Positions 7,585 to 33,777 are shown, counted from the first letter of the stretch. The stretch: 64,000 nt of DNA from a virus (IMGVR_UViG_3300044632_001218); one strand, 5' to 3'. Program-made: numbers and translations. Notes: generated by a model not told the origin, from the sequence alone.

Positions 7585-7649
7585 AGGACACTTTGGGAAC
7601 TGGTCCATACAGACCTCCAGTTCCCTTTTTTTGTGCTATCCTATAAGGA
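7585..7649 (+). promoter_or_regulatory. Early promoter cassette P1
   Basis: AGGACACTTTGGGAACTGGTCC, 30 nt, TGC-TATCCT. Confidence 0.7.
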
Positions 7650-7666
7650 CAGTAAAGAAATCCCAC

Positions 7667-9805
7667 ATGTCAGTCAATCTTGAAGTTAAAGGTTCTCTTG
7701 CCAAATGTCTGGCAACTGAGAACCTTATCATTGAACACAAGAAAGTTCCTACTGCGTGCTTTGATGTTGATCGTAGGGTTCTTGTTCTTCCTTTATGGGA
7801 TAAAGCATCTGCAACTGTTTATGATCTTCTTGTAGGTCATGAAGTGGGACATGCACTCTTTACTGATAATATTGATTGGACAAAAGAGTATGCTGATGTT
7901 CCTAAGGACTTTATCAATGTAATTGAAGATGTTCGTGTAGAACGTTTGATGAAGAAAAAGTATCCTGGTCTTTCTAAGACATTTTACAATGGATATAATG
8001 AACTGAATAATGATGATTTCTTCTCAGTGAAGGATGAGAATCTTGATAATCTTACCTTTATTGATCGCATCAATATGTATTTTAAGATTGGTGCATTTCA
8101 CAATATTGCTTTCTCTGATGAAGAGAATGAGTTTGTGACTCGTATCAGTCAACTGGAAACTTTCCAAGAAGTTCTTGATATTGCTCGTGAGATTGTTCAG
8201 TTCTTGAACTACAAGAAAAAACAACTCACTGAGATGCCTGAAATTGTTCAAAATCAAGGACAAAGTGGAGAAGAAGTAGATCTTCCTGAGAATGCTGAAC
8301 AAAATACTCAAGATTCTATGGATATTGAACAAGAATCAGAGGAATCTTCTAAGTCTCAACAAGAATCACAGGGTGAAAATCCTATTACTATGGAGCAAGA
8401 AACTCCTGCTGGTGGTGGACGTGAACCCAGCAATGAGCATGGTGAGTTTGAATCCAAGACTTCACAATCCTTTGAGGAAAAGGCACAGGATTTGACCAAC
8501 AAGTATGGTCAAGAGACTAACTATGTGGAACTTCCTGAAATTATTCTTGAGAATGTGATTATTCCTAATGATTTCATTCATCAGAAAACTGAAGAATATT
8601 ATCAAAGTCATTCTGGTTGGATGAAGGATTGGTATCAGAATGTTCTGGTAGAATACAATTCTTACAAGAAATCTGCAGAGAAAGAAGTTTCTTATCTGGT
8701 TAAGGAGTTTGAATGTAAGAAATCAGCAGACCAATATGCTCGTTCTTCTACTGCACGTACTGGTGTACTTGACACATCCAAACTTCATACTTACAAATTC
8801 AATGAAGATTTGTTCAAAAAAGTGTCAGTAATTCCTGATGGTAAGAATCATGGTCTTATCTTTATTCTTGACTGGTCTGGTTCAATGTCCCATTGGATGT
8901 TGGATACTTGTAAGCAACTGTTTAATTTGATTTGGTTTTGTAAAAAGGTCAACATTCCCTTTGAAGTTTATGCTTTCACTGTGGATTGCAATGCTTATGT
9001 TGAATTGCAGCCAAATCATCCTCCTATCTACAAGAAAGTAGGAGGTGTTATTGCACCAGAACAGTCATTTAGACTGATGAACTTCTTTACCAGTAAGAGT
9101 AATTCTCGTGAATTGGATGCTCAAATGAAGCACATCTGGGCAGCATGTTGGGCATTTCAGAAAGGTAATGGTTGTGCTCCTCGTCATCTTGACTTGTCTG
9201 GTTCTCCTATTGGTGATACAATGCTTGCATTGCATTCGCTGATTCCTGACTTTCAAAAGAAAAACAAACTTCAAAAGGTGAATGTTGTTTTCCTGACTGA
9301 TGGTGAGGGTTATGTGAATGCAACTACCATCAAGAAAAAGAATAATAGTGGTGAGGAATATGTTAGCCTCACTAAAGCATTTAACACTACTGTTCGTAAC
9401 AGGACTAATGGTAGAATCTATTCTTCCTATAACTATGGAAACTTCCCACAGTATTCCAAAGTTCTTCTTTCTACTCTGAAAGATAGGTTTTCTACTGTAA
9501 ACTTCATCAACTTTAGGGTTGTTCCTGGTAGGGATTTCAAGACTTGCTATGATTGGTATGGCAAGGAATTTGGTGATTATGAGAAAGTAAAGTCAATTTA
9601 CAAGAAAGAACAATTCATCACATTCACTGGAACTGGTTATGATCAATTCCATGTAATTCCCACTACTTCACTTTCGCAAGATGAAAAGTTTGAAGTTGAG
9701 GAAGGTGCAACCAAAGCACAAATTAAATCAGCATTTGCTAAAATGTTGAATAAAAAGAAGACAAATAAGAAACTTTTGTCCTCTTTTGTTGATATGATTG
9801 CTTGA
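7667..9805 (+). CDS. CobT-like protein: N-terminal HExxH metallopeptidase-like domain, acidic linker, C-terminal vWA domain
   Basis: HEVGH; FILDWSGSM and FLTDGEG MIDAS-like motifs; ATG at 7667 preferred over TTG at 7631. Confidence 0.8.
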   Translation: MSVNLEVKGSLAKCLATENLIIEHKKVPTACFDVDRRVLVLPLWDKASATVYDLLVGHEVGHALFTDNIDWTKEYADVPKDFINVIEDVRVERLMKKKYPGLSKTFYNGYNELNNDDFFSVKDENLDNLTFIDRINMYFKIGAFHNIAFSDEENEFVTRISQLETFQEVLDIAREIVQFLNYKKKQLTEMPEIVQNQGQSGEEVDLPENAEQNTQDSMDIEQESEESSKSQQESQGENPITMEQETPAGGGREPSNEHGEFESKTSQSFEEKAQDLTNKYGQETNYVELPEIILENVIIPNDFIHQKTEEYYQSHSGWMKDWYQNVLVEYNSYKKSAEKEVSYLVKEFECKKSADQYARSSTARTGVLDTSKLHTYKFNEDLFKKVSVIPDGKNHGLIFILDWSGSMSHWMLDTCKQLFNLIWFCKKVNIPFEVYAFTVDCNAYVELQPNHPPIYKKVGGVIAPEQSFRLMNFFTSKSNSRELDAQMKHIWAACWAFQKGNGCAPRHLDLSGSPIGDTMLALHSLIPDFQKKNKLQKVNVVFLTDGEGYVNATTIKKKNNSGEEYVSLTKAFNTTVRNRTNGRIYSSYNYGNFPQYSKVLLSTLKDRFSTVNFINFRVVPGRDFKTCYDWYGKEFGDYEKVKSIYKKEQFITFTGTGYDQFHVIPTTSLSQDEKFEVEEGATKAQIKSAFAKMLNKKKTNKKLLSSFVDMIA

Positions 9806-9806
9806 T

Positions 9807-9875
9807 GTGCCAGTTTGGGAACTGTCTACTAAGTGGTTCCCAAACCTCAAATCCATGCTATCATTACAAAGTAAT
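9807..9875 (+). promoter_or_regulatory. Early promoter cassette P2
   Basis: GTGCCAGTTTGGGAACTGTCTA, 30 nt, TGC-TATCAT, ATTAC-AAA-GTAAT. Confidence 0.8.
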
Positions 9876-9887
9876 CAACCCAAGACC

Positions 9888-10985
9888 ATGCAGGAACAAC
9901 TTATTAGTTTGCTAAAGGAACAATTTGGTACTGAAATTGATGCTAATGCAGTCAAATCAGTGGCAAATCAAATGAACACTAGTTATGCTACAGCATCGAA
10001 GTATCTGCAAGCATATAAAACTAGTCGTGGTAAATGGAATCTGGAGGCAACAGTAAAAGAACTGGAAGACACCTATAACTCTCCTGCTGCAGAAGGAAAA
10101 GATACCATTTCTTCCCTTTTGTCAGTTGTCCAAAACCTCATTCCTAAGAAAGATGATACCTTCGTCAGCTTTGGTAACTTTAGTGATATTAAAAAAGTTG
10201 TTTCCTCTGGTCTATTCTATCCCACTTTTATTACTGGTCTTTCTGGTAATGGTAAAACCTTTGGTGTAGAGCAAACATGTGCACAGTTGGGTCGTGAACT
10301 GATTCGTGTCAATATTACTATTGAAACTGATGAGGATGACCTAATTGGTGGTTTTCGTCTTGTCAATGGCGAAACTGTATGGCACAATGGTCCTGTGGTT
10401 GAAGCAATGGAGCGTGGTGCAATTCTTCTTCTTGATGAGATTGACCTTGCTTCCAATAAAATCATGTGTCTTCAGTCAATTTTGGAGGGTAAGGGTGTCT
10501 TCCTGAAGAAAATTGGTAAGCATGTTACCCCTAAACAAGGGTTCAATGTGTTTGCTACTGCTAATACTAAAGGTAAAGGTTCTGATGATGGTAGGTTCAT
10601 TGGCACCAATGTGCTCAATGAGGCATTTCTTGAGAGGTTCCCTATTACCTTTGAGCAAGAGTATCCTACCATTAATGTTGAGACAAAAATCTTGACAAAA
10701 GTAGCAGAATCACTTAGTATTCCTATGGTTGGAGAGCACACTGATTTTATTAAACATCTGTGCACTTGGTCTGAGATTATTCGTAAGACCTTTGCAGATG
10801 GTGGTATTGATGAAGTCATTTCCACTCGTCGTCTTGTTCACATCATCAAAGCATATTCCATCTTTGGAAAAAAAGATAAGGCAATCAAAGTTTGTCTCAA
10901 TCGCTTTGATGATGAAACTAAAACAACTTTTGTTGAATTGTATGACAAGATTGATGCTGAGTTTCAGCAACAGGAAGGGGAGTAA
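9888..10985 (+). CDS. cobS: CobS-like MoxR-family AAA+ ATPase
   Basis: Walker A GLSGNGKT, Walker B LLLDEID, NEAFLERF; core gene of T4-like cyanophages. Confidence 0.9.
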   Translation: MQEQLISLLKEQFGTEIDANAVKSVANQMNTSYATASKYLQAYKTSRGKWNLEATVKELEDTYNSPAAEGKDTISSLLSVVQNLIPKKDDTFVSFGNFSDIKKVVSSGLFYPTFITGLSGNGKTFGVEQTCAQLGRELIRVNITIETDEDDLIGGFRLVNGETVWHNGPVVEAMERGAILLLDEIDLASNKIMCLQSILEGKGVFLKKIGKHVTPKQGFNVFATANTKGKGSDDGRFIGTNVLNEAFLERFPITFEQEYPTINVETKILTKVAESLSIPMVGEHTDFIKHLCTWSEIIRKTFADGGIDEVISTRRLVHIIKAYSIFGKKDKAIKVCLNRFDDETKTTFVELYDKIDAEFQQQEGE

Positions 10986-11031
10986 TCCCTTTCCTAAATA
11001 CATAACATCACCCCTATAATTATAAACTCCT

Positions 11032-11163
11032 ATGACTTCCCTTTTTCTCGAAAAAGATGCTGATACCATCTATGATGAATTAGAGGATAATAAATCAGAA
11101 GACATGGAAGATGAATATAGAGAGGATAGGATGGAACAAATGATTTCCAGATATGGTTATTGA
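11032..11163 (+). CDS. Small acidic hypothetical protein (43 aa)
   Basis: Manual ORF downstream of CTAAATA at 10994. Confidence 0.55.
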   Translation: MTSLFLEKDADTIYDELEDNKSEDMEDEYREDRMEQMISRYGY

Positions 11164-11174
11164 GGAGGTTTACT

Positions 11175-11315
11175 GTGATTCAAAACATAAAGGAAATCAT
11201 TTATACAGAGCATCATCAGGAGCTCAAAGAGTTTGCAGAATATCTTGGTGTTGATTACGAAGATTACTTAGAATTTCTGCATCCTGATGTTGACTTTGAT
11301 GATGTTTCAATGTAA
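11175..11315 (+). CDS. Small acidic protein (46 aa), paralog of 27912-28052
   Basis: GAGGAGG RBS, GTG start; EFAEYLGVDYEDY motif. Confidence 0.65.
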   Translation: MIQNIKEIIYTEHHQELKEFAEYLGVDYEDYLEFLHPDVDFDDVSM

Positions 11316-11342
11316 GATGTAGGGGTGGAAGGTTGCCCCACA

Positions 11343-11412
11343 GAGAGTGAAGCCAAAGGGTAAGGCACGTGGACAACACATTCAGTAGTTGGTTCGAATC
11401 CAACCACTCTCT
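11343..11412 (+). ncRNA. tRNA-like element with a collapsed anticodon arm
   Basis: 7-bp acceptor GAGAGTG/CACTCTC; T-arm GTTGG-TTCGAAT-CCAAC; D-arm GCC..GGC; no 5-bp/7-nt anticodon arm. Confidence 0.6.
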
Positions 11413-11495
11413 ACTTATGGGCATCAAAGGTCCAAACTTTGAATAAGTCCCACCCCCTCCATGCCTCTTAACAATGCACAAACAGGAGGGACTAT
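11413..11495 (+). ncRNA. Candidate structured RNA between the tRNA-like element and tRNA-Arg
   Basis: Stems ACTTAT/ATAAGT, TCAAAG/CTTTGA, CCCTCC/GGAGGG; alternative AGTCCC/GGGACT. Confidence 0.45.
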
Positions 11496-11568
11496 GCCCC
11501 GTTAGCTCAGGAGACAGAGCAATTCTCTTCTAAAGAATCGGTCGTGGGTGCAAATCCTACACGGGGTG
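11496..11568 (+). tRNA. trnR: tRNA-Arg(TCT)
   Basis: Cloverleaf; anticodon loop CTTCTAA; atypical T-loop TGCAAAT; no encoded CCA. Confidence 0.9.
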
Positions 11569-11579
11569 TTTGTTTTGAA

Positions 11580-11693
11580 CCTATTTCTTCATTTAGTGAT
11601 GATATAATGATAAGTGTGATAAACTCAAGAGAAAATCTAATGGCACTTTGTCCAAACTGCCATTGGGAATATGATCACAATTTACTAGATTAA
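11580..11693 (+). pseudogene. C-terminal remnant of an HNH endonuclease
   Basis: PISSFSDD...NSRENLMALCPNCHWEYDH; upstream the frame runs into the tRNA, so no N-terminus. Confidence 0.6.
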
Positions 11694-11695
11694 TT

Positions 11696-11854
11696 ATGAA
11701 ATCAAAAGATTGGTGGGTAAGTCAGAATGAAGAGTGGGCAGTAATTCCTTATTGTAATAAGTATATGTTGATATATAAAGGACAGCAAATATCAGTTCAC
11801 AATACAATAGAAACTGCCAAAAAAATTGCACTGAAGGAGTCTAAAAAGAAATGA
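11696..11854 (+). CDS. Hypothetical protein (52 aa)
   Basis: Manual ORF; ATGA overlap with next gene. Confidence 0.6.
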   Translation: MKSKDWWVSQNEEWAVIPYCNKYMLIYKGQQISVHNTIETAKKIALKESKKK

Positions 11855-12111
11855 GTATCTTGAGCATTGAAAGTATTAGTCTTGATGATGATGGATCTGT
11901 TTATGTAACTGCTGTAGTTGAAGATGCAGTTGAAACTTATGCGCCAACTTTCTATGATCCTGCTGAGTATGGTCCTGGATTGTGTGAGGCAAGTTTTACT
12001 TTTGAGGAAGAACAAACTTTTCCAGATAATGATGAAGAACTAATTAAACTTCTGGAAGAACTTGACTTAGAGTGGAATTTGGTGGATAATAGTGATTACT
12101 ACCTTGATTGA
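11851..12111 (+). CDS. Acidic hypothetical protein
   Basis: ORF track; very D/E-rich. Confidence 0.75.
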   Translation: MSILSIESISLDDDGSVYVTAVVEDAVETYAPTFYDPAEYGPGLCEASFTFEEEQTFPDNDEELIKLLEELDLEWNLVDNSDYYLD

Positions 12112-12113
12112 AT

Positions 12114-13142: not shown

Positions 13143-13170
13143 CTAGATAGTAAATAAATTTTGGAGGTGT

Positions 13171-13335
13171 ATGACTCCTCTATTTCTCACAACAATTATA
13201 TCTTGCACACAAGCAGTTGGAATAATACACAAACTTACAAATGTTGTGGGATTAACTGAAATTCAGAAAAAAGAAATTTTAGTTGAGATCAAAAAAATTA
13301 TTCCATCCTGTCCAGTAAAAATAGAAAATAAATGA
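13171..13335 (+). CDS. Hypothetical protein (54 aa)
   Basis: GGAGG RBS; manual ORF. Confidence 0.65.
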   Translation: MTPLFLTTIISCTQAVGIIHKLTNVVGLTEIQKKEILVEIKKIIPSCPVKIENK

Positions 13336-13592
13336 ACACCTACTATTACACACTATTCATAGCATTTACTGTTGTTGCAGTAATGATGATTGTAGATCAA
13401 AATGTAGGTGATTATCTTTTACTTGTTTTTAAAATTATTAAACTAAATTTTGAAAGGATGATCTGGATTATTAGATTTCATCCTTTCTGGATTAGTAATC
13501 CTATTGGCAAATGGTGGATGATGAGAAAATACATGAGGACAGTTGAGCAACTGGCACAACAACTTTCTCAAAAGCAGGATGATGCTGTATAA
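13332..13592 (+). CDS. Hypothetical membrane protein
   Basis: N-terminal hydrophobic helix. Confidence 0.7.
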   Translation: MNTYYYTLFIAFTVVAVMMIVDQNVGDYLLLVFKIIKLNFERMIWIIRFHPFWISNPIGKWWMMRKYMRTVEQLAQQLSQKQDDAV

Positions 13593-15094: not shown

Positions 15095-15254
15095 TGATGG
15101 TCTCAAAGTAATTGAAAATGCTGATGGTACATTTACTATAGAGTGGGATCCTTGTGACAGTAGATGGAGTGTCCTCAATGGACTGACATCAGAAGAGATT
15201 GGTGCTATGATTATGGAACAAGTCAAACTTTACTTGAAAGAACAAAATGCCTAG
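15063..15254 (+). CDS. Hypothetical protein
   Basis: ORF track. Confidence 0.6.
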   Translation: MNVTNQNQKIDDGLKVIENADGTFTIEWDPCDSRWSVLNGLTSEEIGAMIMEQVKLYLKEQNA

Positions 15255-16753: not shown

Positions 16754-16757
16754 GAAA

Positions 16758-16892
16758 ATGCTCATATCATATAAAAATATGGAGGGAAGAATTGTATTTG
16801 TGGATAATCAATATTTTACCTTCACTCCAAATGGTAGCAGTGCTCTCCTTTTAGTGTATAGACAAGATTGGAACACTGTGACAGTTCTGTAA
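16758..16892 (+). CDS. Hypothetical protein (44 aa)
   Basis: Manual ORF; stop lies inside the P3 palindrome. Confidence 0.45.
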   Translation: MLISYKNMEGRIVFVDNQYFTFTPNGSSALLLVYRQDWNTVTVL

Positions 16893-16946
16893 GTGGCACA
16901 AACCCCTTGACTTTCCTCCCCAAACCTGCTATTATTACTAGGTAAT
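16878..16946 (+). promoter_or_regulatory. Early promoter cassette P3 (with -35)
   Basis: GTGACAGTTCTGTAAGTGGCAC; TTGACT-17-TATTAT. Confidence 0.85.
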
Positions 16947-17341: not shown

Positions 17342-17565
17342 TTGATACTCGCTAGGCACATAGCCTAGAAGGAGATCAACCTTACTGAAAGTGTTATTGA
17401 TGCCTGTGGGGAGTCAATAACTTACTTCAGTATTGTACACCTTCTATCATAGCGCCTGGAGATAAACTTGTCTGCTTGATAGTCGTAAGGGGTACAACCA
17501 GGAAAGTTGTATTAAATAAAGAGTCCCCTAGGCCACATCGTAGATTATCGTAGGTGGACACTCTT
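17341..17565 (+). ncRNA. About 225-nt multi-stem structured RNA between tRNA-Ser and tRNA-Val
   Basis: Four stem domains and a CCTGG/CCAGG pseudoknot candidate; no + strand ORF. Confidence 0.65.
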
Positions 17566-19311: not shown

Positions 19312-19381
19312 ATGCCACCTGTACAACTGGCACAATAGACCACTAAAACCATTAAGAATGTGCTATAATTACTTTGTAATT
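19312..19381 (+). promoter_or_regulatory. Early promoter cassette P4
   Basis: ATGCCACCTGTACAACTGGCAC, 30 nt, TGC-TATAAT, AATTAC-TTT-GTAATT. Confidence 0.85.
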
Positions 19382-21955: not shown

Positions 21956-22059
21956 CTCACCCATCTTATTGTTGCCCTAAATGTGGAGCACAGATAGGAT
22001 GGACTGGAAGGTTCTTTCAGTTTCTTCGTATTCCATTACATCGGTGTAAGGACACTTGA
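21952..22059 (+). CDS. Small Cys-containing peptide (35 aa)
   Basis: CCPKCG; ATGA-coupled. Confidence 0.45.
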   Translation: MTHPSYCCPKCGAQIGWTGRFFQFLRIPLHRCKDT

Positions 22060-22107
22060 AGAACTGGCACAGCAGGGCACCCAAAGTGGTCTGTGATGCC
22101 CTATAAT
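22049..22107 (+). promoter_or_regulatory. Early promoter cassette P5
   Basis: AGGACACTTGAAGAACTGGCAC, 31 nt, TATAAT. Confidence 0.7.
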
Positions 22108-22129
22108 ACTCTCATAAGCAACCAAACCG

Positions 22130-25004: not shown

Positions 25005-25074
25005 GTGCCAGATGATGAAGTGGCACACAAACCCCCCAAATGCCTTGACAGTATGCTATGATTACTTTGTAATC
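25005..25074 (+). promoter_or_regulatory. Early promoter cassette P6
   Basis: GTGCCAGATGATGAAGTGGCAC, 29 nt, TGC-TATGAT, TGATTAC-TTT-GTAATCA. Confidence 0.8.
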
Positions 25075-25084
25075 AGTAAAACAC

Positions 25085-26057: not shown

Positions 26058-26238
26058 AGATTTTGTACGTTTGAACCTTGATGAGTTGGATGCACTGAAG
26101 ACTGCCCTACAGTTGCTGTCAAAGAAAGAGCAGAAGATTATGGAAGGTAGTGGTAAAGTATCCCTCAGTGCCCTGTATAACAAACTGCAAAGCACTGTAG
26201 AGGACATCGAGAGGACACTTGTACAAGTGGCACAGTAA
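26050..26238 (+). CDS. Hypothetical protein
   Basis: ORF track; 3' end overlaps the P7 palindrome. Confidence 0.7.
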   Translation: MDEDFVRLNLDELDALKTALQLLSKKEQKIMEGSGKVSLSALYNKLQSTVEDIERTLVQVAQ

Positions 26239-26279
26239 ATCCCCACAGTGCCCTTTTGTGTGCTATCATACTTGTATGA
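26212..26279 (+). promoter_or_regulatory. Early promoter cassette P7 (leaderless type)
   Basis: AGGACACTTGTACAAGTGGCAC, 30 nt, TATCAT-6-ATG. Confidence 0.85.
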
Positions 26280-26572
26280 ATGAATCACAGATGACTTACT
26301 CCTTCACTACTTCTAATCTTTCCAAGATTAAACCTAAACTTCGCACAAGTGGCAGGGTTTCTGGTAACTTTGGTAAGAACAAAGTAAAAGCAGGTTCTCC
26401 TATTTCTGGTCTTGGAGTTACTAATGCAAAAGTAGTCAAAGTTACAACTCAAGATGAGTATTTGAACAAAATGTATTATGTTCTGGATAATGCTGCTGAC
26501 AGGCAGATTCAACAGTTTGCTTACAATGAAATTCGTAAAATTTTGATTCAAAGAGGTATGTGGAATTTCTAA
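26276..26572 (+). CDS. Basic hypothetical protein
   Basis: ATG at predicted +1. Confidence 0.7.
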   Translation: MNESQMTYSFTTSNLSKIKPKLRTSGRVSGNFGKNKVKAGSPISGLGVTNAKVVKVTTQDEYLNKMYYVLDNAADRQIQQFAYNEIRKILIQRGMWNF

Positions 26573-27021
26573 TTTTTTGAATTTCTTTTATTTCTTTGTT
26601 GTTGACTTCTTGTTGCCCATCTAACATTTCCTGGTTCATAATGACCATTGTTGTCTATTCTGTCTAATGAATAATCTGATGATGGTCTTTCTCCCAAATT
26701 ATTGATAATGTATTCTTTGAATGATTCATAGGTATCCCATTTTTCATGTAATTTAATACCTCTTCCACCATAATCTTTGTAATTTATTTTATTAGGATTA
26801 TTGCATCTTTGATTTATTTGATGATAACAGTCATACAAATAACTTTTCCAATCTCCATGTTTTGTATTTTTACTTTTCCTTGACTGATTGGCACAATCAT
26901 TACATTTATTTTGCTTTCTTAAACAATCTCTTCTAATAATAAATTGATTTCCACAATCACAAATTACATTGTCATAGTATTTGTTTCCAATTCTATGACT
27001 AAAATCTAAAACTTTTAACAT
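26569..27021 (-). CDS. HNH homing endonuclease
   Basis: CDCG..C..C Zn module; DYGGRGI...SLDRIDNNGHYEPGNVRWAT; only convincing minus-strand protein gene. Confidence 0.85.
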   Translation of the reverse strand: MLKVLDFSHRIGNKYYDNVICDCGNQFIIRRDCLRKQNKCNDCANQSRKSKNTKHGDWKSYLYDCYHQINQRCNNPNKINYKDYGGRGIKLHEKWDTYESFKEYIINNLGERPSSDYSLDRIDNNGHYEPGNVRWATRSQQQRNKRNSKN

Positions 27022-27043
27022 TTAACACAACAGGTAACTGTTT

Positions 27044-27050
27044 TATTTAT
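27044..27050 (-). promoter_or_regulatory. T4-like late promoter for the HNH gene
   Basis: ATAAATA on the minus strand 22 nt upstream of the ATG. Confidence 0.6.
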
Positions 27051-27080
27051 CAAAGAGGACAGTGGGTATAAAGTTATCTT

Positions 27081-27149
27081 GTGACACTTGTGCAACTGTC
27101 CACTATGCCTTGACTTTTGACCTTAAATCTGTTATCATTACAAAGTAAT
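27081..27149 (+). promoter_or_regulatory. Early promoter cassette P8 (with -35)
   Basis: GTGACACTTGTGCAACTGTCCA; TTGACT-17-TATCAT. Confidence 0.85.
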
Positions 27150-27159
27150 CTAAAAACAA

Positions 27160-27285
27160 ATGCCTACTACTTACAATTTCACTGGTGATGCTATTACCTT
27201 CCTTGGTCTGGTTGGTGTCATTAGCACTTCCATTATTGTTATTACTGTCTTTCGTCGTTATTTCAATAGTCCCTACATCAAATGA
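27160..27285 (+). CDS. Single-pass membrane peptide (41 aa)
   Basis: TFLGLVGVISTSIIVITVF followed by RRY. Confidence 0.65.
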   Translation: MPTTYNFTGDAITFLGLVGVISTSIIVITVFRRYFNSPYIK

Positions 27286-27491
27286 AAAGCATCCAAGAGT
27301 ACGAAAAAGACCTCAAAGAAGCAAAGAAGAGGTATGATAAACTGACTAAACAGATTAGGAATTGTAAGTCTGAATATCAGTATGAAATCATGTGTGAAGA
27401 CCTTGAAGATTGTAGGCAAGATGTATTTGAACTGCAACTTATCATCAAAGACTTACGACAACAGAAAAAACTTGCTGAAATTGATGTATAG
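27282..27491 (+). CDS. Coiled-coil hypothetical protein
   Basis: ORF track. Confidence 0.7.
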   Translation: MKSIQEYEKDLKEAKKRYDKLTKQIRNCKSEYQYEIMCEDLEDCRQDVFELQLIIKDLRQQKKLAEIDV

Positions 27492-27494
27492 CAT

Positions 27495-27562
27495 GTGACA
27501 CTTGTAAAACTGGCACTGTAAATGAGCACAGTGCCAGTTTTTATGCTATCATGTATTCATGA
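27495..27562 (+). promoter_or_regulatory. Early promoter cassette P9 (leaderless type)
   Basis: GTGACACTTGTAAAACTGGCAC, 30 nt, TATCAT-6-ATG. Confidence 0.85.
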
Positions 27563-27744
27563 CAAACAAACAAATGAACTTTCAAGATTATTCTGTTAGC
27601 AAACCCAGTAATGAATGGTTTGAGGATAGTTGTAGAGTGTGGGCAGAATATTATAGTTTCTTGCTTGGACTTAGCATCTGGGATGATGCAGAAAAAGCAT
27701 GGTTTGAGGATCAATTTAATTTCAACAAAATCTACGATGTCTAA
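27559..27744 (+). CDS. Hypothetical protein
   Basis: ORF track. Confidence 0.7.
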   Translation: MTNKQMNFQDYSVSKPSNEWFEDSCRVWAEYYSFLLGLSIWDDAEKAWFEDQFNFNKIYDV

Positions 27745-27871
27745 TAAAGTTTGGAAAGGTGTCTGCCTGTGCGTTATCCTGCTTGTGGGAGATCCTTTCA
27801 TTAACTTGCCACAGGTTAATGCTATGCCTGTGACACAAGTTGAAGTGGCACATAACACTCCCAAAACCTAA
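27737..27871 (+). CDS. Small hydrophobic protein
   Basis: In-frame ATG; 3' end encodes the P10 palindrome. Confidence 0.5.
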   Translation: MSNKVWKGVCLCVILLVGDPFINLPQVNAMPVTQVEVAHNTPKT

Positions 27872-27897
27872 GTTTATGTGCTATGATGATTACATCA
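27830..27897 (+). promoter_or_regulatory. Early promoter cassette P10
   Basis: GTGACACAAGTTGAAGTGGCAC, 30 nt, TGC-TATGAT, TGATG-ATTA-CATCA. Confidence 0.8.
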
Positions 27898-27911
27898 ACA
27901 GTTGAGGAAAC

Positions 27912-28052
27912 ATGATTGACACTTGTAGATTGCATGATGATTTAGAGGGTTTTGCATCCTATTTGGGTGTTGATTATGATGATTATTATCAACTCATTTA
28001 TCATCTTCCTGATGAGGATGAGTCTGATTTAGAAGTAGAACTCACTGCTTGA
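27912..28052 (+). CDS. Small acidic protein (46 aa), paralog of 11175-11315
   Basis: GAGGA RBS; GFASYLGVDYDDY. Confidence 0.7.
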   Translation: MIDTCRLHDDLEGFASYLGVDYDDYYQLIYHLPDEDESDLEVELTA

Positions 28053-28113
28053 TTTATAGGAATGTGTTTGCCTTAAAGTTACACAACTTTGTTCACTTAC
28101 CACTTTCTTTATT

Positions 28114-28284
28114 ATGTCTATCAATCTGATGTCTCTTGCTGCTGATCTTGCTGATACCAATTTCGCTGCTTCTCAACTCATTATGAGTCTGCAAAGTGCA
28201 CAAAATGGTGCTGAACTTGTTGAAGCACTTGATGCTTATGACAGCACAGTTATTGATAGTGTGACTGAACCTGTTGCTGCTTGA
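28114..28284 (+). CDS. Small acidic protein (56 aa), paralog of 33229-33408
   Basis: AQNGAELVEALDA. Confidence 0.65.
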   Translation: MSINLMSLAADLADTNFAASQLIMSLQSAQNGAELVEALDAYDSTVIDSVTEPVAA

Positions 28285-28292
28285 TAATAAAT

Positions 28293-28312
28293 AGGGGCAC
28301 AATGCCCCTTTC
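28293..28312 (+). terminator. Putative terminator overlapping a late promoter (ATAAATA 28287-28293)
   Basis: AGGGGCA-CAA-TGCCCCT followed by T-rich tail. Confidence 0.55.
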
Positions 28313-28335
28313 CTTTTCTATACACTTCTAAGACA

Positions 28336-28458
28336 ATGACTCCCAACTGGATACACAATTCAGGCAAGAAAAAGAATCCCAGAGGTGTGTCCAAAGGGAA
28401 GATTAAAGCACGTAAACAAGTATTGCAATCAATAAAGGCAAAGTATAAAGTATCATGA
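28336..28458 (+). CDS. Basic peptide (40 aa)
   Basis: MTPNWIHNSGKKKNPRG...; K/R-rich. Confidence 0.6.
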   Translation: MTPNWIHNSGKKKNPRGVSKGKIKARKQVLQSIKAKYKVS

Positions 28459-28664
28459 TCCACAAGCATACTCTACAAACAGCAGCAGCATTTGATAGAA
28501 TTGATGATGCTTTGCTTGGTAAAACTGATGATAGTTTGAGTGAACTAATTGAAGATCTTGAGCATTTATTGTATAGGGCAAAAGAGATTTATAACACAGC
28601 AGCAGCATTTAGTGATGGATCTGATTATGAAATAGTGACACAATGTGACCTTCCTAAAGTATAG
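28455..28664 (+). CDS. Hypothetical protein
   Basis: ORF track. Confidence 0.65.
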   Translation: MIHKHTLQTAAAFDRIDDALLGKTDDSLSELIEDLEHLLYRAKEIYNTAAAFSDGSDYEIVTQCDLPKV

Positions 28665-28668
28665 TGAT

Positions 28669-28737
28669 GTGCCAGTTGTGGAACTGGTCGCTATAATCCC
28701 CAAAACTCCTGAAACTGTGCTATCATACACAGTATGA
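28669..28737 (+). promoter_or_regulatory. Early promoter cassette P11 (leaderless type)
   Basis: GTGCCAGTTGTGGAACTGGTCG, 30 nt, TATCAT-7-ATG. Confidence 0.85.
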
Positions 28738-29150
28738 ACAAACAAACCACTCTCATGACTGAAAAAGTTATTGATAAGATTGAAGAAATGTGTCAAGTTC
28801 TTCGTACTAACTACCAGTCTTATTCTATTGCAAGGCACAGAGATTACATTGCCAAAGGTGATAGTGTAGAATGGCATCAACAGCAGATTGATAAACTCTG
28901 TGAAGGTGAAGGTGTTGATGAATACACTTACACCAAAGGCAGAAAGTATGCCAAGATTATTCATGTTACCAATGACAGTAAGCAACGCAGTGCTCATGCA
29001 TTTGTGAACCTGAATACTGGTGATGTATACAAATCTGCAACTTGGTCTGCACCTGCATTGAATGGTGTAAGGTATAATCTTCTTGATGACAAATCTCGTG
29101 AAGAGATGTATCAACGTGCTGATTGGGCAGGTTCTTATTTGTATAAATGA
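28734..29150 (+). CDS. Conserved phage early hypothetical protein
   Basis: GRKYAKI...AHAFVNLNTGDVYKSATWSAPA..VRYNL. Confidence 0.75.
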   Translation: MNKQTTLMTEKVIDKIEEMCQVLRTNYQSYSIARHRDYIAKGDSVEWHQQQIDKLCEGEGVDEYTYTKGRKYAKIIHVTNDSKQRSAHAFVNLNTGDVYKSATWSAPALNGVRYNLLDDKSREEMYQRADWAGSYLYK

Positions 29151-29317
29151 ATTATCTTTGTTTGGTTGATGGTGTTGTTGAGTATGGCAGCACCAGTTTG
29201 AGTGACTTTGTTCACTATCAGTTGGTGTATGCTGAAGAACACAAGTATGCTAATGTAGAGTATCTTACTCTCACTGATAAAGAGTATGCTAACCTGTTTC
29301 CTGTTGAAGAAGAATGA
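29147..29317 (+). CDS. Hypothetical protein (56 aa)
   Basis: Manual ORF, ATGA-coupled. Confidence 0.65.
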   Translation: MNYLCLVDGVVEYGSTSLSDFVHYQLVYAEEHKYANVEYLTLTDKEYANLFPVEEE

Positions 29318-29433
29318 AATCTGCACTGTTTTGTATCACTTGCCTTGCAATCTTGAACATTGTTAATGCTTTTGCTGACCAACAAATGAAACATGATACA
29401 CAAAAAATGATTCACCAAAGTTCTACAATGTGA
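29314..29433 (+). CDS. Small protein with signal-like N-terminus (39 aa)
   Basis: Manual ORF, ATGA-coupled. Confidence 0.5.
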   Translation: MKSALFCITCLAILNIVNAFADQQMKHDTQKMIHQSSTM

Positions 29434-29496
29434 CAGTTGTAGAACTGGTCGCTATTTTTACCAAAACCCCTGAAAACGTGCTACCATACATGTATG
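29430..29496 (+). promoter_or_regulatory. Early promoter cassette P12 (leaderless type)
   Basis: GTGACAGTTGTAGAACTGGTCG, 30 nt, TACCAT-6-ATG. Confidence 0.85.
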
Positions 29497-29652
29497 ATAA
29501 ATCAAAACGACATGAAAGTGTTTAAGATTGTTGATGTTTGGTCTAATCGAACTCACACAGTTAATGCACAGAATCAAGAAATTGCAATTAGGAAAGTTGC
29601 AGATCAAGTTAATCACTTTGGTCTGCTAGTTGTGAGCATGAATCTACTCTGA
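29494..29652 (+). CDS. Hypothetical protein (52 aa)
   Basis: Manual ORF from the +1 ATG. Confidence 0.6.
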   Translation: MINQNDMKVFKIVDVWSNRTHTVNAQNQEIAIRKVADQVNHFGLLVVSMNLL

Positions 29653-29720
29653 GTGACACTTGTAGAACTGTCCACTTATGCTTGACTTTTTGGTGAATCT
29701 ATGGTATCATACATGTATGA
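29653..29720 (+). promoter_or_regulatory. Early promoter cassette P13 (-35, leaderless)
   Basis: GTGACACTTGTAGAACTGTCCA; TTGACT-17-TATCAT-6-ATG. Confidence 0.88.
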
Positions 29721-29866
29721 AAGATAAGTTTATGACTGATTCCACTCTTGATCTCTTCTGTGATCATGCAGATACACAAATGGCAGAAGAGTATGCTATG
29801 GAACTTGAAGCAAAAGCAGCAGAACTAGAAATAACTGTTGACTATTATATTGCTGAGTTCCTTTGA
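29717..29866 (+). CDS. Small acidic protein
   Basis: MEEAKAAELEITVDYYIAEFL-type acidic helix; starts at the +1 ATG. Confidence 0.7.
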   Translation: MKDKFMTDSTLDLFCDHADTQMAEEYAMELEAKAAELEITVDYYIAEFL

Positions 29867-29883
29867 TTATTAACAACAACATT

Positions 29884-30558
29884 ATGCAAACCCAAACTAA
29901 GTTTAATCACCTCAATCTGCCTATTCTTGCAGATATTCCCACTGAAACTGTGGATGGTTCACGTCGTTATGTTGTGAATGGTAAACTGTTGCCTTCTGTC
30001 ACTACAGTTACTTCCTATCAGAATCGCAAATCTATTGCAGAGTGGAGGGAACGTGTAGGTGTTGATGTAGCAAATCAAATTAGTCAATTTGCATCAAACA
30101 ATGGCACTAAGTTCCACAAAATTGTGGAAGATTATGTCAACAATCTTGATGTAGATTATGATACTGAGAAGTATGAAGTTGCACTGAAATTGTTCAATCA
30201 ATTCAAGGCACTTCTTGATGATGTGAATAACATTCACTATCAGGAATGTGCCCTGTATTCTGAACAACTTGGAATTGCAGGTCGTGTAGATTGTATTGCA
30301 GAATACAATGGTAAACTGTCTGTAATTGACTTCAAGAGTTCTTCTAAACCAAAGTATGAAAATCAGATTCAAAACTATTTTGTTCAGGAGACTGGTTATG
30401 CTATGATGTATGAGGAAATGACTGGTCAAAAAGTAGAACAAATTGTGACCTTGATTTCTTGTCATTCAGGTGAAACGCAAGTTTTTATTAAGAACCCTGA
30501 TGATTATGTTGATACTCTCAAGCAATACATTCAGGAATACAATAACAAAGGTAACTGA
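29884..30558 (+). CDS. PD-(D/E)xK (Cas4/RecB-like) exonuclease
   Basis: PSVTTV...GTKFH...ECALYS..IAGRVDCI...IDFKSS...YFVQETGYA. Confidence 0.85.
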   Translation: MQTQTKFNHLNLPILADIPTETVDGSRRYVVNGKLLPSVTTVTSYQNRKSIAEWRERVGVDVANQISQFASNNGTKFHKIVEDYVNNLDVDYDTEKYEVALKLFNQFKALLDDVNNIHYQECALYSEQLGIAGRVDCIAEYNGKLSVIDFKSSSKPKYENQIQNYFVQETGYAMMYEEMTGQKVEQIVTLISCHSGETQVFIKNPDDYVDTLKQYIQEYNNKGN

Positions 30559-30561
30559 GTT

Positions 30562-30885
30562 ATGATTTATGAAGTGGAAGTTCGTCCAGGTCCTAACACT
30601 GAGTTCTTTCAATACTACACAGAAACTGTAGAGGCACCTACCTCACATGATGCTGTTGCAAGAGTTCAACGTGCAAATCCTGGTTGTGTTGTGAGAACAA
30701 CTAACTCATGGAGTGAGTATAGTGATAATGAATCTGAATCTAGTTCATCATCAGAAATTAGTGGAGGTTTAGTACTCATTGGTCTTGTAGTGATGTTGTT
30801 AATCTATGCCTGGAAGTGGATTCTACTTATTGGTGCAATTTCATTGGTAATTTGGTTCATCATTCAATTTGTAAATGATAACTAA
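30562..30885 (+). CDS. Membrane-anchored hypothetical protein
   Basis: Small N-terminal domain, Ser-rich linker, C-terminal hydrophobic helices. Confidence 0.7.
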   Translation: MIYEVEVRPGPNTEFFQYYTETVEAPTSHDAVARVQRANPGCVVRTTNSWSEYSDNESESSSSSEISGGLVLIGLVVMLLIYAWKWILLIGAISLVIWFIIQFVNDN

Positions 30886-30896
30886 ATAACTTTTTT

Positions 30897-30968
30897 GCTA
30901 GTGTAGCACAGTGGTAGTGCAATGGTTTTGTAAACCATAGGTCGCAAGTTCAAATCTTGTCACTAGCT
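30897..30968 (+). tRNA. trnT: tRNA-Thr(TGT)
   Basis: Cloverleaf; loop TTTGTAA; preceded by CTAAATA at 30882. Confidence 0.93.
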
Positions 30969-31005
30969 TTTATTCCACAAATGTGTGGCATTTGGATGAT
31001 ACCAT

Positions 31006-31073
31006 GTGCCAGTTGTAGAACTGTCACACGAAATGAGCACATCCCCCAAAAGTGTGCTATCATACATGTATGA
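31006..31073 (+). promoter_or_regulatory. Early promoter cassette P14 (leaderless type)
   Basis: GTGCCAGTTGTAGAACTGTCAC, 30 nt, TATCAT-6-ATG. Confidence 0.88.
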
Positions 31074-31306
31074 AAAATCAAATTGCATCTGAAATCTTCC
31101 ACTATCACACTAACTGGAAGGAAGGTAAAGTGAATCAAATGTGGATTCAAGAAATTGAAGAATCCCATGATGTTTATAAGTATGTTGCTATTGCTTTCAA
31201 TCCTGAGAAGAATGTGAGTATGGTGATGTCCAATCCTCGTGGATATTATGATACTCTGCTGTGGGTGCGCAAGTGGTGCGGAACTTTCTCTATTCTCCCT
31301 GTTTGA
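31070..31306 (+). CDS. Hypothetical protein
   Basis: Starts at the +1 ATG. Confidence 0.7.
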   Translation: MKNQIASEIFHYHTNWKEGKVNQMWIQEIEESHDVYKYVAIAFNPEKNVSMVMSNPRGYYDTLLWVRKWCGTFSILPV

Positions 31307-31315
31307 TTATATCAT

Positions 31316-31383
31316 GTGCCAGTTGTAGAACTGGTCGCTATATTTACCGAAACCACTGAAACTGTGCTACCATACTAGTATGG
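31316..31383 (+). promoter_or_regulatory. Early promoter cassette P15 (leaderless type)
   Basis: GTGCCAGTTGTAGAACTGGTCG, 30 nt, TACCAT-6-ATG. Confidence 0.88.
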
Positions 31384-31655
31384 AAAAACAAATGACTGAC
31401 TTCCCCACAATTAAATCTAAAGATGGCACAATGGTAGTGTCATTTTATCCTGTCAAAACACCTTTTGGTGATATATCTGAAACCTGGACACTTAAGGTGC
31501 TTGAGTGGAAAGGAATTGAGACAATTTCCAAGAAGTTCATTAACAAAGTTGAGAAGAAAGTTCAACTGCGTGAGTATGCTGGTTTTGGTTACATTGTGAC
31601 CAAAGATAACAGCAACCTTCCGCAACTTGGTAATCCTATGGCAGGTGCTTGCTGA
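31380..31655 (+). CDS. Hypothetical protein
   Basis: ORF track. Confidence 0.7.
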   Translation: MEKQMTDFPTIKSKDGTMVVSFYPVKTPFGDISETWTLKVLEWKGIETISKKFINKVEKKVQLREYAGFGYIVTKDNSNLPQLGNPMAGAC

Positions 31656-31849
31656 TGAATGAAACTGTGCAACTGAAACTGAATAGAATTATGAGTGATC
31701 TTGAGCAGGCAATCTATGAATCAGAGACTGCAATCAATGATCCTGAGAAAGGTTATCCCTATGCTGCTGGGTATAGTAGAGCAGCAATGAAATCTGTTTT
31801 AGATGATGTTCAACTCCTTAAATCTTACCTTGAAAATGAATCAGACTGA
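31655..31849 (+). CDS. Hypothetical protein
   Basis: KGYPYAAGYSRAAM motif. Confidence 0.7.
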   Translation: MNETVQLKLNRIMSDLEQAIYESETAINDPEKGYPYAAGYSRAAMKSVLDDVQLLKSYLENESD

Positions 31850-32021
31850 TGTGATGGATGCTATTAACAAAGCATTTGCAAAGTTATCCTCAAATCAGAT
31901 GATTTATGATTTCTGGTTATCTGAACTGTATTATCCTAGTGGTGATTTTAACTTGGATAATTGGAATGAACATAGTCTCAAACTCATGCAAAAAGATGTA
32001 TCATCAATGATCGACGAGTGA
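31836..32021 (+). CDS. Hypothetical protein
   Basis: In-frame ATG within the track ORF. Confidence 0.6.
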   Translation: MNQTDVMDAINKAFAKLSSNQMIYDFWLSELYYPSGDFNLDNWNEHSLKLMQKDVSSMIDE

Positions 32022-32031
32022 GTGATACCAT

Positions 32032-32098
32032 GTGCCACTTGTACTAGTGTCACAATACACTTGACAAATCCCTAAAAACGTGCTATCATACAGGTATG
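32032..32098 (+). promoter_or_regulatory. Early promoter cassette P16 (-35, leaderless)
   Basis: GTGCCACTTGTACTAGTGTCAC; TTGACA-17-TATCAT-6-ATG. Confidence 0.9.
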
Positions 32099-32569
32099 GA
32101 AAAAAACAAAACATTCTCAAAACTAATTTACAACATCTCAAACCCTAAGTGTGTTGTATTTGATCTAGATGCAACTTTGTGTCATCATGGTGATCAATCA
32201 GGGTTTGAAGAATGTGATCAATTCCCTGCTATTGATGCAGTTGTAGATGTTGCAAAGCACTGCAAATCTATGGGATTTGATCTAGTCATTGCTACTGCCA
32301 GACCTGATACATTTGCAGATGGTACAGCATATTGGTTGCAGGAACATTTGCCTGAGTTTGATGCACTCTACATGAAAAATGCAGATGATGATGCAACTGG
32401 TTCCACTGCTAAAGGTCATCAACTGATGGATATTCTTCGCTTTTGGGATGACATTCAATTCTGGGTTGATGATAGTCCTTTCAATGCAAAAGTCATTGAG
32501 GATCATGCTGTAACCTGTATTCGTCCTTCCCACAATGATGCTTTCTGGGCAGATTATGGTGACCAATGA
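32096..32569 (+). CDS. HAD-family phosphatase resembling the PseT (T4 PNK) 3'-phosphatase domain
   Basis: VVFDLDATL, VIATAR, LYMK..DD....K, WVDDSP. Confidence 0.75.
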   Translation: MEKNKTFSKLIYNISNPKCVVFDLDATLCHHGDQSGFEECDQFPAIDAVVDVAKHCKSMGFDLVIATARPDTFADGTAYWLQEHLPEFDALYMKNADDDATGSTAKGHQLMDILRFWDDIQFWVDDSPFNAKVIEDHAVTCIRPSHNDAFWADYGDQ

Positions 32570-32645
32570 TCCTAAAATGCTAGGCAATGTTCTGGCATTT
32601 ATGATTATCCAAATGCACAATGTTGTCTGCCTCCTTTATACTGAT

Positions 32646-32713
32646 GTGCCAGTTGTAGAACCGTCACACGAAATGAGCACAGACCCCAAAAATGTGCTAC
32701 CATACTAGTATGG
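32646..32713 (+). promoter_or_regulatory. Early promoter cassette P17 (leaderless type)
   Basis: GTGCCAGTTGTAGAACCGTCAC, 30 nt, TACCAT-6-ATG. Confidence 0.88.
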
Positions 32714-33186
32714 AAAAACAAAACAACACTCAAACCAACCAAATGATTGCTCTTCAAACTAACATTCAACCTGTTGCCCTTACTGTTGACAACTATCTGA
32801 CTGAGGTTAGTGATACTCTGCGCAGTAAGATTGAAGAATTGATGGAAGATTCTTTCCATCTTGATGATATGCTGGACTTCATCAATGAGCATGGCGATGA
32901 TAATTTCATCAACTATTATGATGATTATGTTCGCTTTGGTGAGGACAATTCCTATGCTGCTGTTGATGCTTTCATTGAAGAGTTTGGTATTCATGAAGTA
33001 GAAAGGTTTGAGGATGCCTATCATGGAGAATGGGAAACTCCTGAGATCTTTGCTGAAGTCTACTGTGATGACATGGGATATAAAGTTCCTGAGTTTGTTG
33101 TGGTAGATTGGGAAGCAACCTGGGAACAAAATCTCCAATATAATTATGCTTTCAACAATGGATTCGTGTTCATCAAGAACTACTGA
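32710..33186 (+). CDS. ardA: ArdA-like antirestriction (DNA-mimic) protein
   Basis: Highly acidic; FEDAYHGEWETPEIFAEVY...VPEFVVVDWEATW...Y...NGFVF resembles the ArdA C-terminal domain. Confidence 0.6.
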   Translation: MEKQNNTQTNQMIALQTNIQPVALTVDNYLTEVSDTLRSKIEELMEDSFHLDDMLDFINEHGDDNFINYYDDYVRFGEDNSYAAVDAFIEEFGIHEVERFEDAYHGEWETPEIFAEVYCDDMGYKVPEFVVVDWEATWEQNLQYNYAFNNGFVFIKNY

Positions 33187-33228
33187 ATCACACTCTTTCA
33201 CTAACACTTTTTCACTCCAATTAACATC

Positions 33229-33408
33229 ATGACTGCTACTCTGAACCTGCCTAAAACTGCTGCTATGGTGATGCTTGCAAAGGCACAAACTGGTGATGAT
33301 CTTCTCACTGTACTGGATGCAGTTGTAGATACTCAAGAGGATCAAGTTCCTGTGCCTGATGATGCCTACATCATGGAGAATGATTATGATGATACCATTG
33401 ATTTCTGA
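33229..33408 (+). CDS. Small acidic protein (59 aa), paralog of 28114-28284
   Basis: AQTGDDLLTVLDA. Confidence 0.65.
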   Translation: MTATLNLPKTAAMVMLAKAQTGDDLLTVLDAVVDTQEDQVPVPDDAYIMENDYDDTIDF

Positions 33409-33424
33409 TCCTGGGTGATACCAT

Positions 33425-33493
33425 GTGCCACTAATTAAAGTGGCACAAACATTTACCAAAACCCCTGAATCCGTGCTATCATACATGTATGAT
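33425..33493 (+). promoter_or_regulatory. Early promoter cassette P18 (leaderless type)
   Basis: GTGCCACTAATTAAAGTGGCAC, 30 nt, TATCAT-6-ATG. Confidence 0.9.
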
Positions 33494-33698
33494 GAATGAG
33501 AAAAGCAACCAAATGCAAGTTTATGTGGTGATCGGTGGGCATGATTATGAAGGAGAATCTTTTGATTCTCTGAAAATGTTTGATTGCAAGTCTGCTGCTG
33601 AAGCATACAAGAATCACCTGGAAGTTGAGTGGAGTTATGATTATGTTCTGATGCGTGAGCAAGATGTAATCATGGAGTCTGCTATTGCTGCTGCCTAA
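33489..33698 (+). CDS. Hypothetical protein
   Basis: ORF track. Confidence 0.7.
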   Translation: MMNEKSNQMQVYVVIGGHDYEGESFDSLKMFDCKSAAEAYKNHLEVEWSYDYVLMREQDVIMESAIAAA

Positions 33699-33708
33699 AT
33701 GATACCAT

Positions 33709-33777
33709 GTGCCACTTGTAGAACTGGCACAAACATTTACCGAAAACCCTGAATCCGTGCTATCATACATGTATGAT
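33709..33777 (+). promoter_or_regulatory. Early promoter cassette P19 (leaderless type)
   Basis: GTGCCACTTGTAGAACTGGCAC, 30 nt, TATCAT-6-ATG. Confidence 0.9.

Follow-up and report, generated by a model that had tools for sequence, protein, structure and literature searches.

Why would a phage keep the DNA between a promoter's -10 box and its first transcribed bases self-complementary while letting the bases themselves change? The question is raised by a stretch of 64,000 nucleotides, here called the window, from a virus (IMGVR_UViG_3300044632_001218). Within it 19 plus-strand promoter cassettes of fixed layout lie between positions 7585 and 33777, and nearly all of them carry a short inverted repeat across -10/+1. 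As considered below, this repeat is real and appears, from comparison of sequences, to be under selection. The reading that I prefer, with a probability of roughly 0.45, is that the repeat forms a transient hairpin on the DNA's non-template strand within the opened or scrunched promoter bubble, which would help the host RNA polymerase to initiate or to escape.

The window is part of a 107.8-kb virus contig that is ~51% complete. Relative to cultured T4-like cyanophages (Kyanoviridae), its CobS displays 68-69% identity and its major capsid protein, gp23, ~70% identity, and a gp55-type late sigma factor and a T4-type DNA polymerase are encoded as well. The carrier, going by these genes, is a T4-like cyanophage. 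The RNA runs with the clearest presence of the region come from one estuary sample and one freshwater sample. Each cassette consists, in order, of a 22-bp dyad at -64..-43, a 27-nt spacer (28 nt in the cassette with its -10 at 22102), TG, one base, the -10 hexamer, and then a gene, with a TTGAC -35 box present 17 nt upstream of the -10 in four cases. What is seen, that is, is a sigma70-like promoter repeated before small genes of the variable region. Each cassette is a predicted early promoter for a host sigma70-type RNA polymerase, presumably active and with +1 at the seventh base past the -10 hexamer. Doron et al. 2016 (ISME J 10:1437) reportedly described an early-gene regulatory element in T4-like cyanophages, including Syn9 and P-TIM40. 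The same dyad, ~27-nt spacer, and -10 are found, by genome comparison rather than from that paper's text, before small genes of the Syn9 and P-TIM40 hypervariable region. The cassette is, on that comparison, an early-promoter type also present in those two phages, with the window seemingly adding to a known type a covarying repeat and, as proposed here, a role for DNA structure.

A perfect stem of at least 4 bp, located between the -10 box and approximately +7 and with its centre at -5 to -2, is present in 18/19 cassettes, with stem lengths of 4-7 bp, though this is not a count of independent events since the 19 copies represent about six types, eight of them being nearly one sequence. In 15/19 the stem reaches 5 bp or more and the loop measures 3-6 nt. 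Shuffling of -6..+10 (3,000 shuffles) gives on average 3.3 cassettes with stems of at least 4 bp (maximum 10) and 1.0 with stems of at least 5 bp (maximum 6), or 4.4 and 1.3, respectively, if the bases at -1, +1, and +2 are held fixed. Stems accumulate along the cassette at centres -5 to -1 only. Among the 11 window cassettes in which -7 faces +1 (the -7:+1 register), 95.5% of cells are paired versus 12-44% with slid partners, and their covariation score of 0.282 is equalled in 1/500 shuffles. A first-pass annotation of this DNA had quoted individual repeats, counted 18 of 19 cassettes as possessing them, with one, P5, as the sole exception, and named beforehand the comparison with shuffled discriminators as able to refute the idea. 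The quoted repeats are all found in place, the recount gives the same 18/19, the shuffles fall well short of it, and the exception is the 22102 cassette, which lacks the TG extension as well as the stem. The cassettes, all on the plus strand, are as follows.

7585..7649, + strand: cassette before a peptidase gene; dyad 7585-7606, -10 at 7637, 4-bp repeat 7639-7649 (-10..+1)
7595-7633, + strand: terminator-like hairpin plus T-run within the peptidase-gene cassette, preceding the -10 at 7637
9807..9875, + strand: cassette before cobS; dyad 9807-9828, -10 at 9859, 5-bp repeat 9863-9875 (-8..+5, 3-nt loop), also present in orthologous cassettes of the closest relatives
16878..16946, + strand: cassette with -35 box; -10 at 16930, 5-bp repeat 16934-16946
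19312..19381, + strand: cassette; -10 at 19364, 6-bp repeat 19367-19381
22049..22120, + strand: the exception; dyad, consensus -10 (22102), neither TG extension nor repeat
25005..25075, + strand: cassette; -10 at 25057, 7-bp repeat 25059-25075 (-10..+7), the strongest of the window
26212..26279, + strand: cassette; -10 at 26264, repeat 26266-26279 (-10..+4), in-frame ATG at +1 (26276)
27081..27149, + strand: cassette with -35 box; -10 at 27133, 5-bp repeat 27137-27149
27495..27562, + strand: cassette; -10 at 27547, immediately preceded by a strong terminator-like hairpin (-21.3 kcal/mol), repeat 27549-27562, ATG at +1 (27559)
27830..27897, + strand: cassette; -10 at 27882, repeat 27884-27897, stem without start codon, G at -9 matched by C at +3
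28669..28737, + strand: cassette; -10 at 28721, 6-bp repeat 28723-28737, ATG at +2
29430..29496, + strand: cassette; -10 at 29482, repeat 29485-29496 with a mismatched outer pair, ATG at +1
29653..29720, + strand: cassette with -35 box; -10 at 29705, repeat 29707-29720, ATG at +1
31006..31073, + strand: cassette; -10 at 31058, repeat 31060-31073, ATG at +1 (31070)
31316..31383, + strand: cassette; -10 at 31368, repeat 31370-31383, ATG at +1, C at -10 matched by G at +4
32032..32098, + strand: cassette with -35 box; -10 at 32084, repeat 32087-32098, ATG at +1 (32096)
32646..32713, + strand: cassette; -10 at 32698, repeat 32700-32713, ATG at +1
33425..33493, + strand: cassette; -10 at 33477, repeat 33478-33493 (-11..+5), ATG at +1
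33709..33777, + strand: cassette; -10 at 33761, repeat 33762-33777 (-11..+5), ATG at +1

Over -12..+18 the 22102 cassette is identical to two cassettes of S-SRM01, a phage without the repeat in its cassettes. Because of that match, and because TG is absent, this cassette was probably imported from a lineage that lacks the repeat. A further dyad-like site, the twentieth, lies at 15154-15220 and has a -10 that overlaps the end of an open reading frame; it possesses no repeat and is conserved in relatives.

Relatives of these cassettes come from five scans of viral contigs plus three cultured phage regions, together supplying 1,216 distinct cassettes and 759 distinct -12..+8 words. Later scans fixed part of the left arm, and type frequencies are not to be read as prevalences. 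The first scan, by contrast blind past position -10, has stems of at least 4 bp in 47/98 and of at least 5 bp in 35/98. Complementarity as pooled over all pairs is diluted by mixed registers. Within the -7:+1 register, and in counts which come from related sequences and thereby overstate independence, -9/+3 is paired in 45/83 words with 16.9 expected, C going with G and G with C, and -6/-1 is paired in 37/49 with 21.2 expected. In the register centred on -1, -4:+3 is paired in 23/30 versus 9.9 expected, and a second pair in 21/30 versus 10.5. The outer pairs of the register centred on -2, i.e., the ATTAC-N3-GTAAT type, show no covariation (-9:+6 paired in 25/76 with 24.5 expected). The earlier proposal that the sequence changes while pairing is kept thus holds for arms and centres, which vary, but not for this last type, with its constant 5-bp core. 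Cassettes standing before one and the same gene family swap arms and register with the stem retained (three families). Among close relatives, discriminator positions have changed in 3.8% of cases within stems versus 9.9% within loops (p=4e-4), with the spacer at 10.7%. Selection on pairing, rather than on one protein-read sequence, had also been proposed beforehand, and that proposal is borne out to the extent that arms and centre vary, pairs covary in two registers, and stems outconserve their adjacent loops.

Where the repeat occurs is best judged from loci chosen by CobS alone, as a division of loci into rich and poor is circular for the cassettes themselves. At CobS identities of at least 75%, stems of at least 5 bp are found in 10/22 cassette words; below 75% they are found in 2/71, with shuffles at 5%. 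A second, large-phage group (capsid identity 74%, no CobS hit) also has the repeat, often with GGA loops. On these comparisons the repeat is a lineage-specific addition to a widespread cassette, one that is kept in the lineage of the window's phage plus at least one more distant lineage. Two T4-like phages lacking a CobS match, of 284 and 171 kb and 100% and 89% complete (G006 and G008; loci L097 and L025), possess both cassette and repeat.

Could such repeats arise without being of use? Template-switch mutation, occurring in an often-open bubble, might make short palindromes, with recombination then spreading a few types that have little or no function. Template-switch repair would, in addition, reduce apparent change within stems. 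Few types do dominate, two of them covering most families, the repeat is missing from many cyanophages, and cassettes clearly have been exchanged, as with the match of the 22102 cassette to S-SRM01. Such a by-product nonetheless seems quite unlikely. Single changes stand to simultaneous double changes as 36 to 1 among close relatives. Pairing ends at -10 instead of continuing to -11 (0/27 and 0/6 family votes in two registers), with stems of the main registers mostly beginning at -10 or -8 and ending at +4..+7, only rarely including A-11 or T-12. Dyad-less sigma70-like sites of the same loci, furthermore, have the repeat at near background, i.e., 18% versus 12%.

A repressor that covers -10/+1 and thereby shuts early promoters off could also read a two-fold symmetric sequence. 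Operators in general often overlap -10/+1, the ATTAC-N3-GTAAT core is nearly invariant, and the right arm is conserved even without a left arm. One genome, that of the window, nevertheless combines arm spacings of 2, 3, and 4 nt with unrelated arms, such that one dimer could not read all of the repeats, and relatives divide into 47 arm/register classes, part of which are due to chance, with switching between classes within single gene families. An operator is therefore an improbable explanation. A separate, dyad-less promoter at 36254-36293 (-35, 17 nt, -10) has its own 6-bp inverted repeat at ~-13..+5 with a 6-nt spacer, conserved in several relatives, and that repeat could be an operator.

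The position of the repeat relative to +1 matters to what may fold. Counting from the end of the -10, relatives mostly have a purine as the seventh base and T as the eighth. An ATG at the predicted +1 opens at least 40 codons in 74/86 cassettes, versus 4/55 for an ATG at -4/-2 and 2/24 for one at +5..+8 (6/79 together). Within the window, at 26276-33773, there is an in-frame ATG at +1 in 10 cassettes and at +2 in one, all 11 opening frames of 49-158 codons. The right arm of the repeat, in these 11, is the gene's own in-frame start codon, which the first-pass annotation overlooked. The frame from 31070 has 78 residues, with no further Met before residue 24, and that from 32096 is a 157-residue HAD phosphatase-like gene whose next Met is residue 59, i.e., neither has another early Met. 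In most of the 11, a second Met follows 5-12 codons on, while the first ATG of the other window cassettes comes after 8-19 nt. In 53/74 ATG-start cassettes the base at -9 is C, which departs from the consensus and is paired to the G of ATG. Many of these early genes thus appear to be transcribed as leaderless mRNAs. This placement of +1 by the in-frame ATGs puts the inner pairs, as well as the left arm, upstream of it, and the left arm would thus be absent from the promoter's own RNA. Nine of the RNA contigs listed start 14-40 nt downstream of a predicted +1, a weak agreement. The RNA evidence consists of assembled contigs, from which start sites, strand, and level are not readable. Pairing of nascent RNA with the non-template strand, considered as sole cause, is ruled out by the covariation of -6:-1, a pair wholly upstream of +1.

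The position of most of this interval upstream of +1 led, in the first-pass annotation, to the claim that the structure would have to form in DNA. DNA remains the likelier place, but the argument as given was incomplete: cassettes stand in tandem and can be read through from upstream promoters, which makes an RNA hairpin possible and calls for a separate counter-argument. Such a hairpin in read-through transcripts would hide the start codon, attenuate, or mark a site of cutting, with the cassette's own transcript, starting inside the stem, being leaderless and free of it. T4 genes e, soc, and 49 are gated in this manner. The cassettes follow one another on a single strand, a number of RNA contigs extend from one cassette into the next (though the library may contain DNA), and there are the 11 window cassettes in which the in-frame ATG serves as right arm. 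Stem-loops overlapping the -10 in PeSL cassettes, moreover, have been interpreted as terminators or attenuators of upstream transcripts, with one having terminated in a reporter (PMC2839356). Against an RNA role, a start codon is included in only 80/248 stems of at least 5 bp (38/116 gene families), and the repeat is retained directly downstream of a terminator-like hairpin, at 7637 and 27547 and in 8/9 such cassettes of relatives. Mean RNA stability is just -2.7 kcal/mol, the transcribed strand being no better than the other. There is no downstream U-run, the loops are neither GNRA nor UUCG, and there is no excess of G-U (as DNA, G-T pairs are 8/52 of mismatches). I consider the RNA hairpin, the main rival to a DNA hairpin in the bubble, rather unlikely.

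The preferred reading, a hairpin within the DNA bubble, would work as follows. A host activator would bind the upstream dyad (-64..-43). The non-template strand from ~-10 to +4..+7, kept self-complementary by selection, would fold only once polymerase, having opened the promoter, has started to draw downstream DNA in. So folded, it would keep the newly unwound +1..+7 bases open and would compete with sigma for the -10/discriminator strand, letting polymerase leave very strong promoters faster. Folding in DNA, the strand on which it occurs, and its help in escape are all steps beyond the pairing itself. Doubtful, within this reading, is a stronger version in which the scrunching-driven mini-hairpin strips the -10/discriminator from sigma and so triggers escape, i.e., as a sequence-independent, cis-acting switch. 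The stem's position is counted in favour of a bubble hairpin because it matches the melted plus scrunched region. Four-base loops are mostly C-N-N-G, and such loops fold well in DNA. Promoter escape is limited by melting downstream of +1 (PMC3632114), the non-template strand in the bubble of an RNA polymerase can fold into a hairpin, as seen with RfaH and ops (PMC5995543), and GNA triloops give rise to unusually stable DNA mini-hairpins (PMC13037366). In relatives, GNA loops receive 33/78 family votes where the left arm is present and 5/33 where it is not, G occupies -2 in 14/19 stems versus 82/272 controls, and, for the -2 and -1 registers, GNA lies on the non-template strand by 41 family votes versus 4 for the template strand (one -5 type has template GNA), though these GNA counts come from few related lineages and the window's own triloops are not GNA.

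Further points weigh against this reading. Stem stabilities are low, from -0.3 to -3.9 kcal/mol for single-stranded DNA, and the stems would have to compete with contacts of sigma and core to the same strand. Predicted DNA folding does not usefully separate the strands either (non-template -2.33, template -2.24 kcal/mol, using parameters that lack a GNA bonus). Positions equivalent to stems change at 7.1% in hairpin-less cassettes versus 3.8% in stems, a difference with p=0.09, and over +3..+8 there is no difference in conservation between stem and hairpin-less cassettes. Stems accompany the TG extension in 194/242 cases (80%) versus 17/55 (31%) without TG, which would fit strong promoters needing help to clear, but the association is confounded by lineage and by locus selection. 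Because some RNA contigs bridge cassettes, read-through RNA may hold the repeat. Lastly, Syn9, P-TIM40, ACG-2014f, S-SRM01, S-CRM01, S-PM2, and DSL-LC02 all have the cassette, with the repeat absent, sporadic, or weak, and these seven cultured cyanophages, in lacking a consistent repeat, imply that it is dispensable in general.

Folding could alternatively precede polymerase, with the repeat extruding as a cruciform from supercoiled duplex and so pre-opening or blocking the promoter, as do the hairpins of phage N4. Given Mg2+ and physiological supercoiling, hairpins about as large do extrude in N4 (PMC4496689), and C-GNA-G loops exist in some relatives. N4 extrusion, however, needs a G+C-rich core and a special loop, whereas window stems are A+T-rich and lack GNA loops, and an extruded -10 would presumably take away the very duplex that sigma first recognises. 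Extrusion beforehand is accordingly very unlikely.

The first-pass annotation had in fact offered the promoters used by N4 virion RNA polymerase as an established analogy. Likeness to N4 promoters P1-P3 does exist in the short stem, the 3-nt loop, stem bases that are free so long as they pair, and the GNA loops of some relatives. The analogy breaks down, though, in three respects: position, strand, and enzyme. In N4 the hairpin has its centre at -11, lies wholly upstream of +1, acts on the template strand, and is read by the phage's virion polymerase (PMC4496689), whereas repeats here have centres at -5 to -1, span +1, have GNA loops mostly on the non-template strand, and accompany sigma70 elements. 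Window repeats show no conserved loop, including none of the N4-type template GNA. The largest window proteins are baseplate, tail, or unnamed, and a search for PF00940 in the 51%-complete contig and two complete relatives gave no match, with the positive control giving no signal as well.

Also among the closest known systems are the PeSL cassettes that T4-type coliphages and vibriophages carry (Arbiol et al. 2010, PMC2839356; Comeau 2014, PMC4122927). These likewise are repeated sigma70-like promoter cassettes before small genes of a variable region, with apparent cassette exchange, and different cassette types precede one gene family here. PeSL stem-loops, described as stable terminators, may overlap the -10 or sit just before the start site (PMC2839356). 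The earlier remark that nothing of the kind was known to be described for sigma70-type phage promoters was for that reason too strong. PeSL stems nonetheless are stable, often polyG/polyC, and variable in position, whereas the repeat here is 4-7 bp, A+T-rich, locked to -10..+7, and without a U-run, and it coexists in some cassettes with a separate terminator-like hairpin. By prediction, the -10/+1 repeat is weak and in no instance is called terminator-like. PeSLs also end in a Shine-Dalgarno sequence, whereas many genes here appear to be leaderless. Separately, one RNA contig (single, depth 2) joins 32054 to 32671, from dyad 32032 to cassette 32646, as a deletion through inter-cassette recombination would. 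RNA contigs of three runs also contain a 23-nt insertion at 28073, intergenic before a small gene and possibly a variable small element, with similar sequence seen as a loose end at 17437.

Other systems are more distant. The ops/RfaH hairpin similarly is a small non-template hairpin inside the RNA polymerase bubble (PMC5995543), though of a paused elongation complex, with fixed sequence and a known reader, versus an initiation bubble and variable sequence for the repeat here. The CGRE1 or PlmA-bound yfr2 promoters have a 21-22 nt palindrome from -55 to -57 with GTTG or GTTA flanks (PMC6191309), while the present dyad is at -64..-43 with other ends (yfr2 promoters being compared by description). 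A few copies of the element in Syn9 and P-TIM40 show, close to the start site, a 4-6 bp repeat that is weak and in some cases forms only by way of G-T pairs. It is sporadic there, versus 18/19, perfect, covarying, and linked to TG here. Doron et al. 2016 may, reportedly, mention a second, short inverted repeat where early transcription starts in Syn9. I know of no covariation analysis of, nor mechanism for, the second repeat of the Syn9/P-TIM40 element, and it is not described in the checked papers that cite Doron et al. 2016. The literature searched, with Doron et al. 2016 outside of it, holds no report of a covarying hairpin across -10/+1 that acts in DNA at a sigma70 promoter.

As to what reads the dyad, a scan of prokaryote genomes gave 36 hits, five of them cyanobacterial. 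Five chromosomes, from Hormoscilla, Microcystis, Mojavia, and Synechococcus lacustris (L477-L479, L481, L484), have 1-2 near-perfect copies each (dyad, 27 nt, TG-extended -10). Given such copies in host chromosomes, it is probably a host activator that reads the phage dyad. The repeat occurs in 0/5 of these cyanobacterial sites, too few for a strong control, and an Rfam search found no RNA adjoining the five. The two Mojavia copies precede paralogous long genes.

How escape is tuned by the sequence between the -10 and the earliest transcribed bases is not settled, and is usually framed in terms of base-specific contacts. Hundreds of natural variants retain pairing in preference to sequence in this region, alongside related phages without the repeat. 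They amount to natural wild-type, broken, and compensated templates with which to ask whether the opened non-template strand folds and drives escape. They may also reveal how a phage that has no polymerase of its own arrives at very strong, fast-clearing promoters, with bearing on cyanobacterial promoter design. If true, the mini-hairpin that strips the -10/discriminator from sigma would be an escape switch that I have not found described for any sigma70 promoter, often with a leaderless start codon as one arm.

Some features of the window lie apart from the cassettes. A whole-window search for repeats is dominated by collagen-like tail genes. There is an Rfam match to abiF RNA at 11455-11491 (50.6 bits, cut-off 37), directly upstream of a tRNA gene. 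A minus-strand open reading frame of 150 residues (26569-27021), opposed to the direction of the early region and without a Pfam match, lies between two cassettes. Finally, TTTTCCACA-type 9-mers are clustered at 34733-35115, at the end of the early region.

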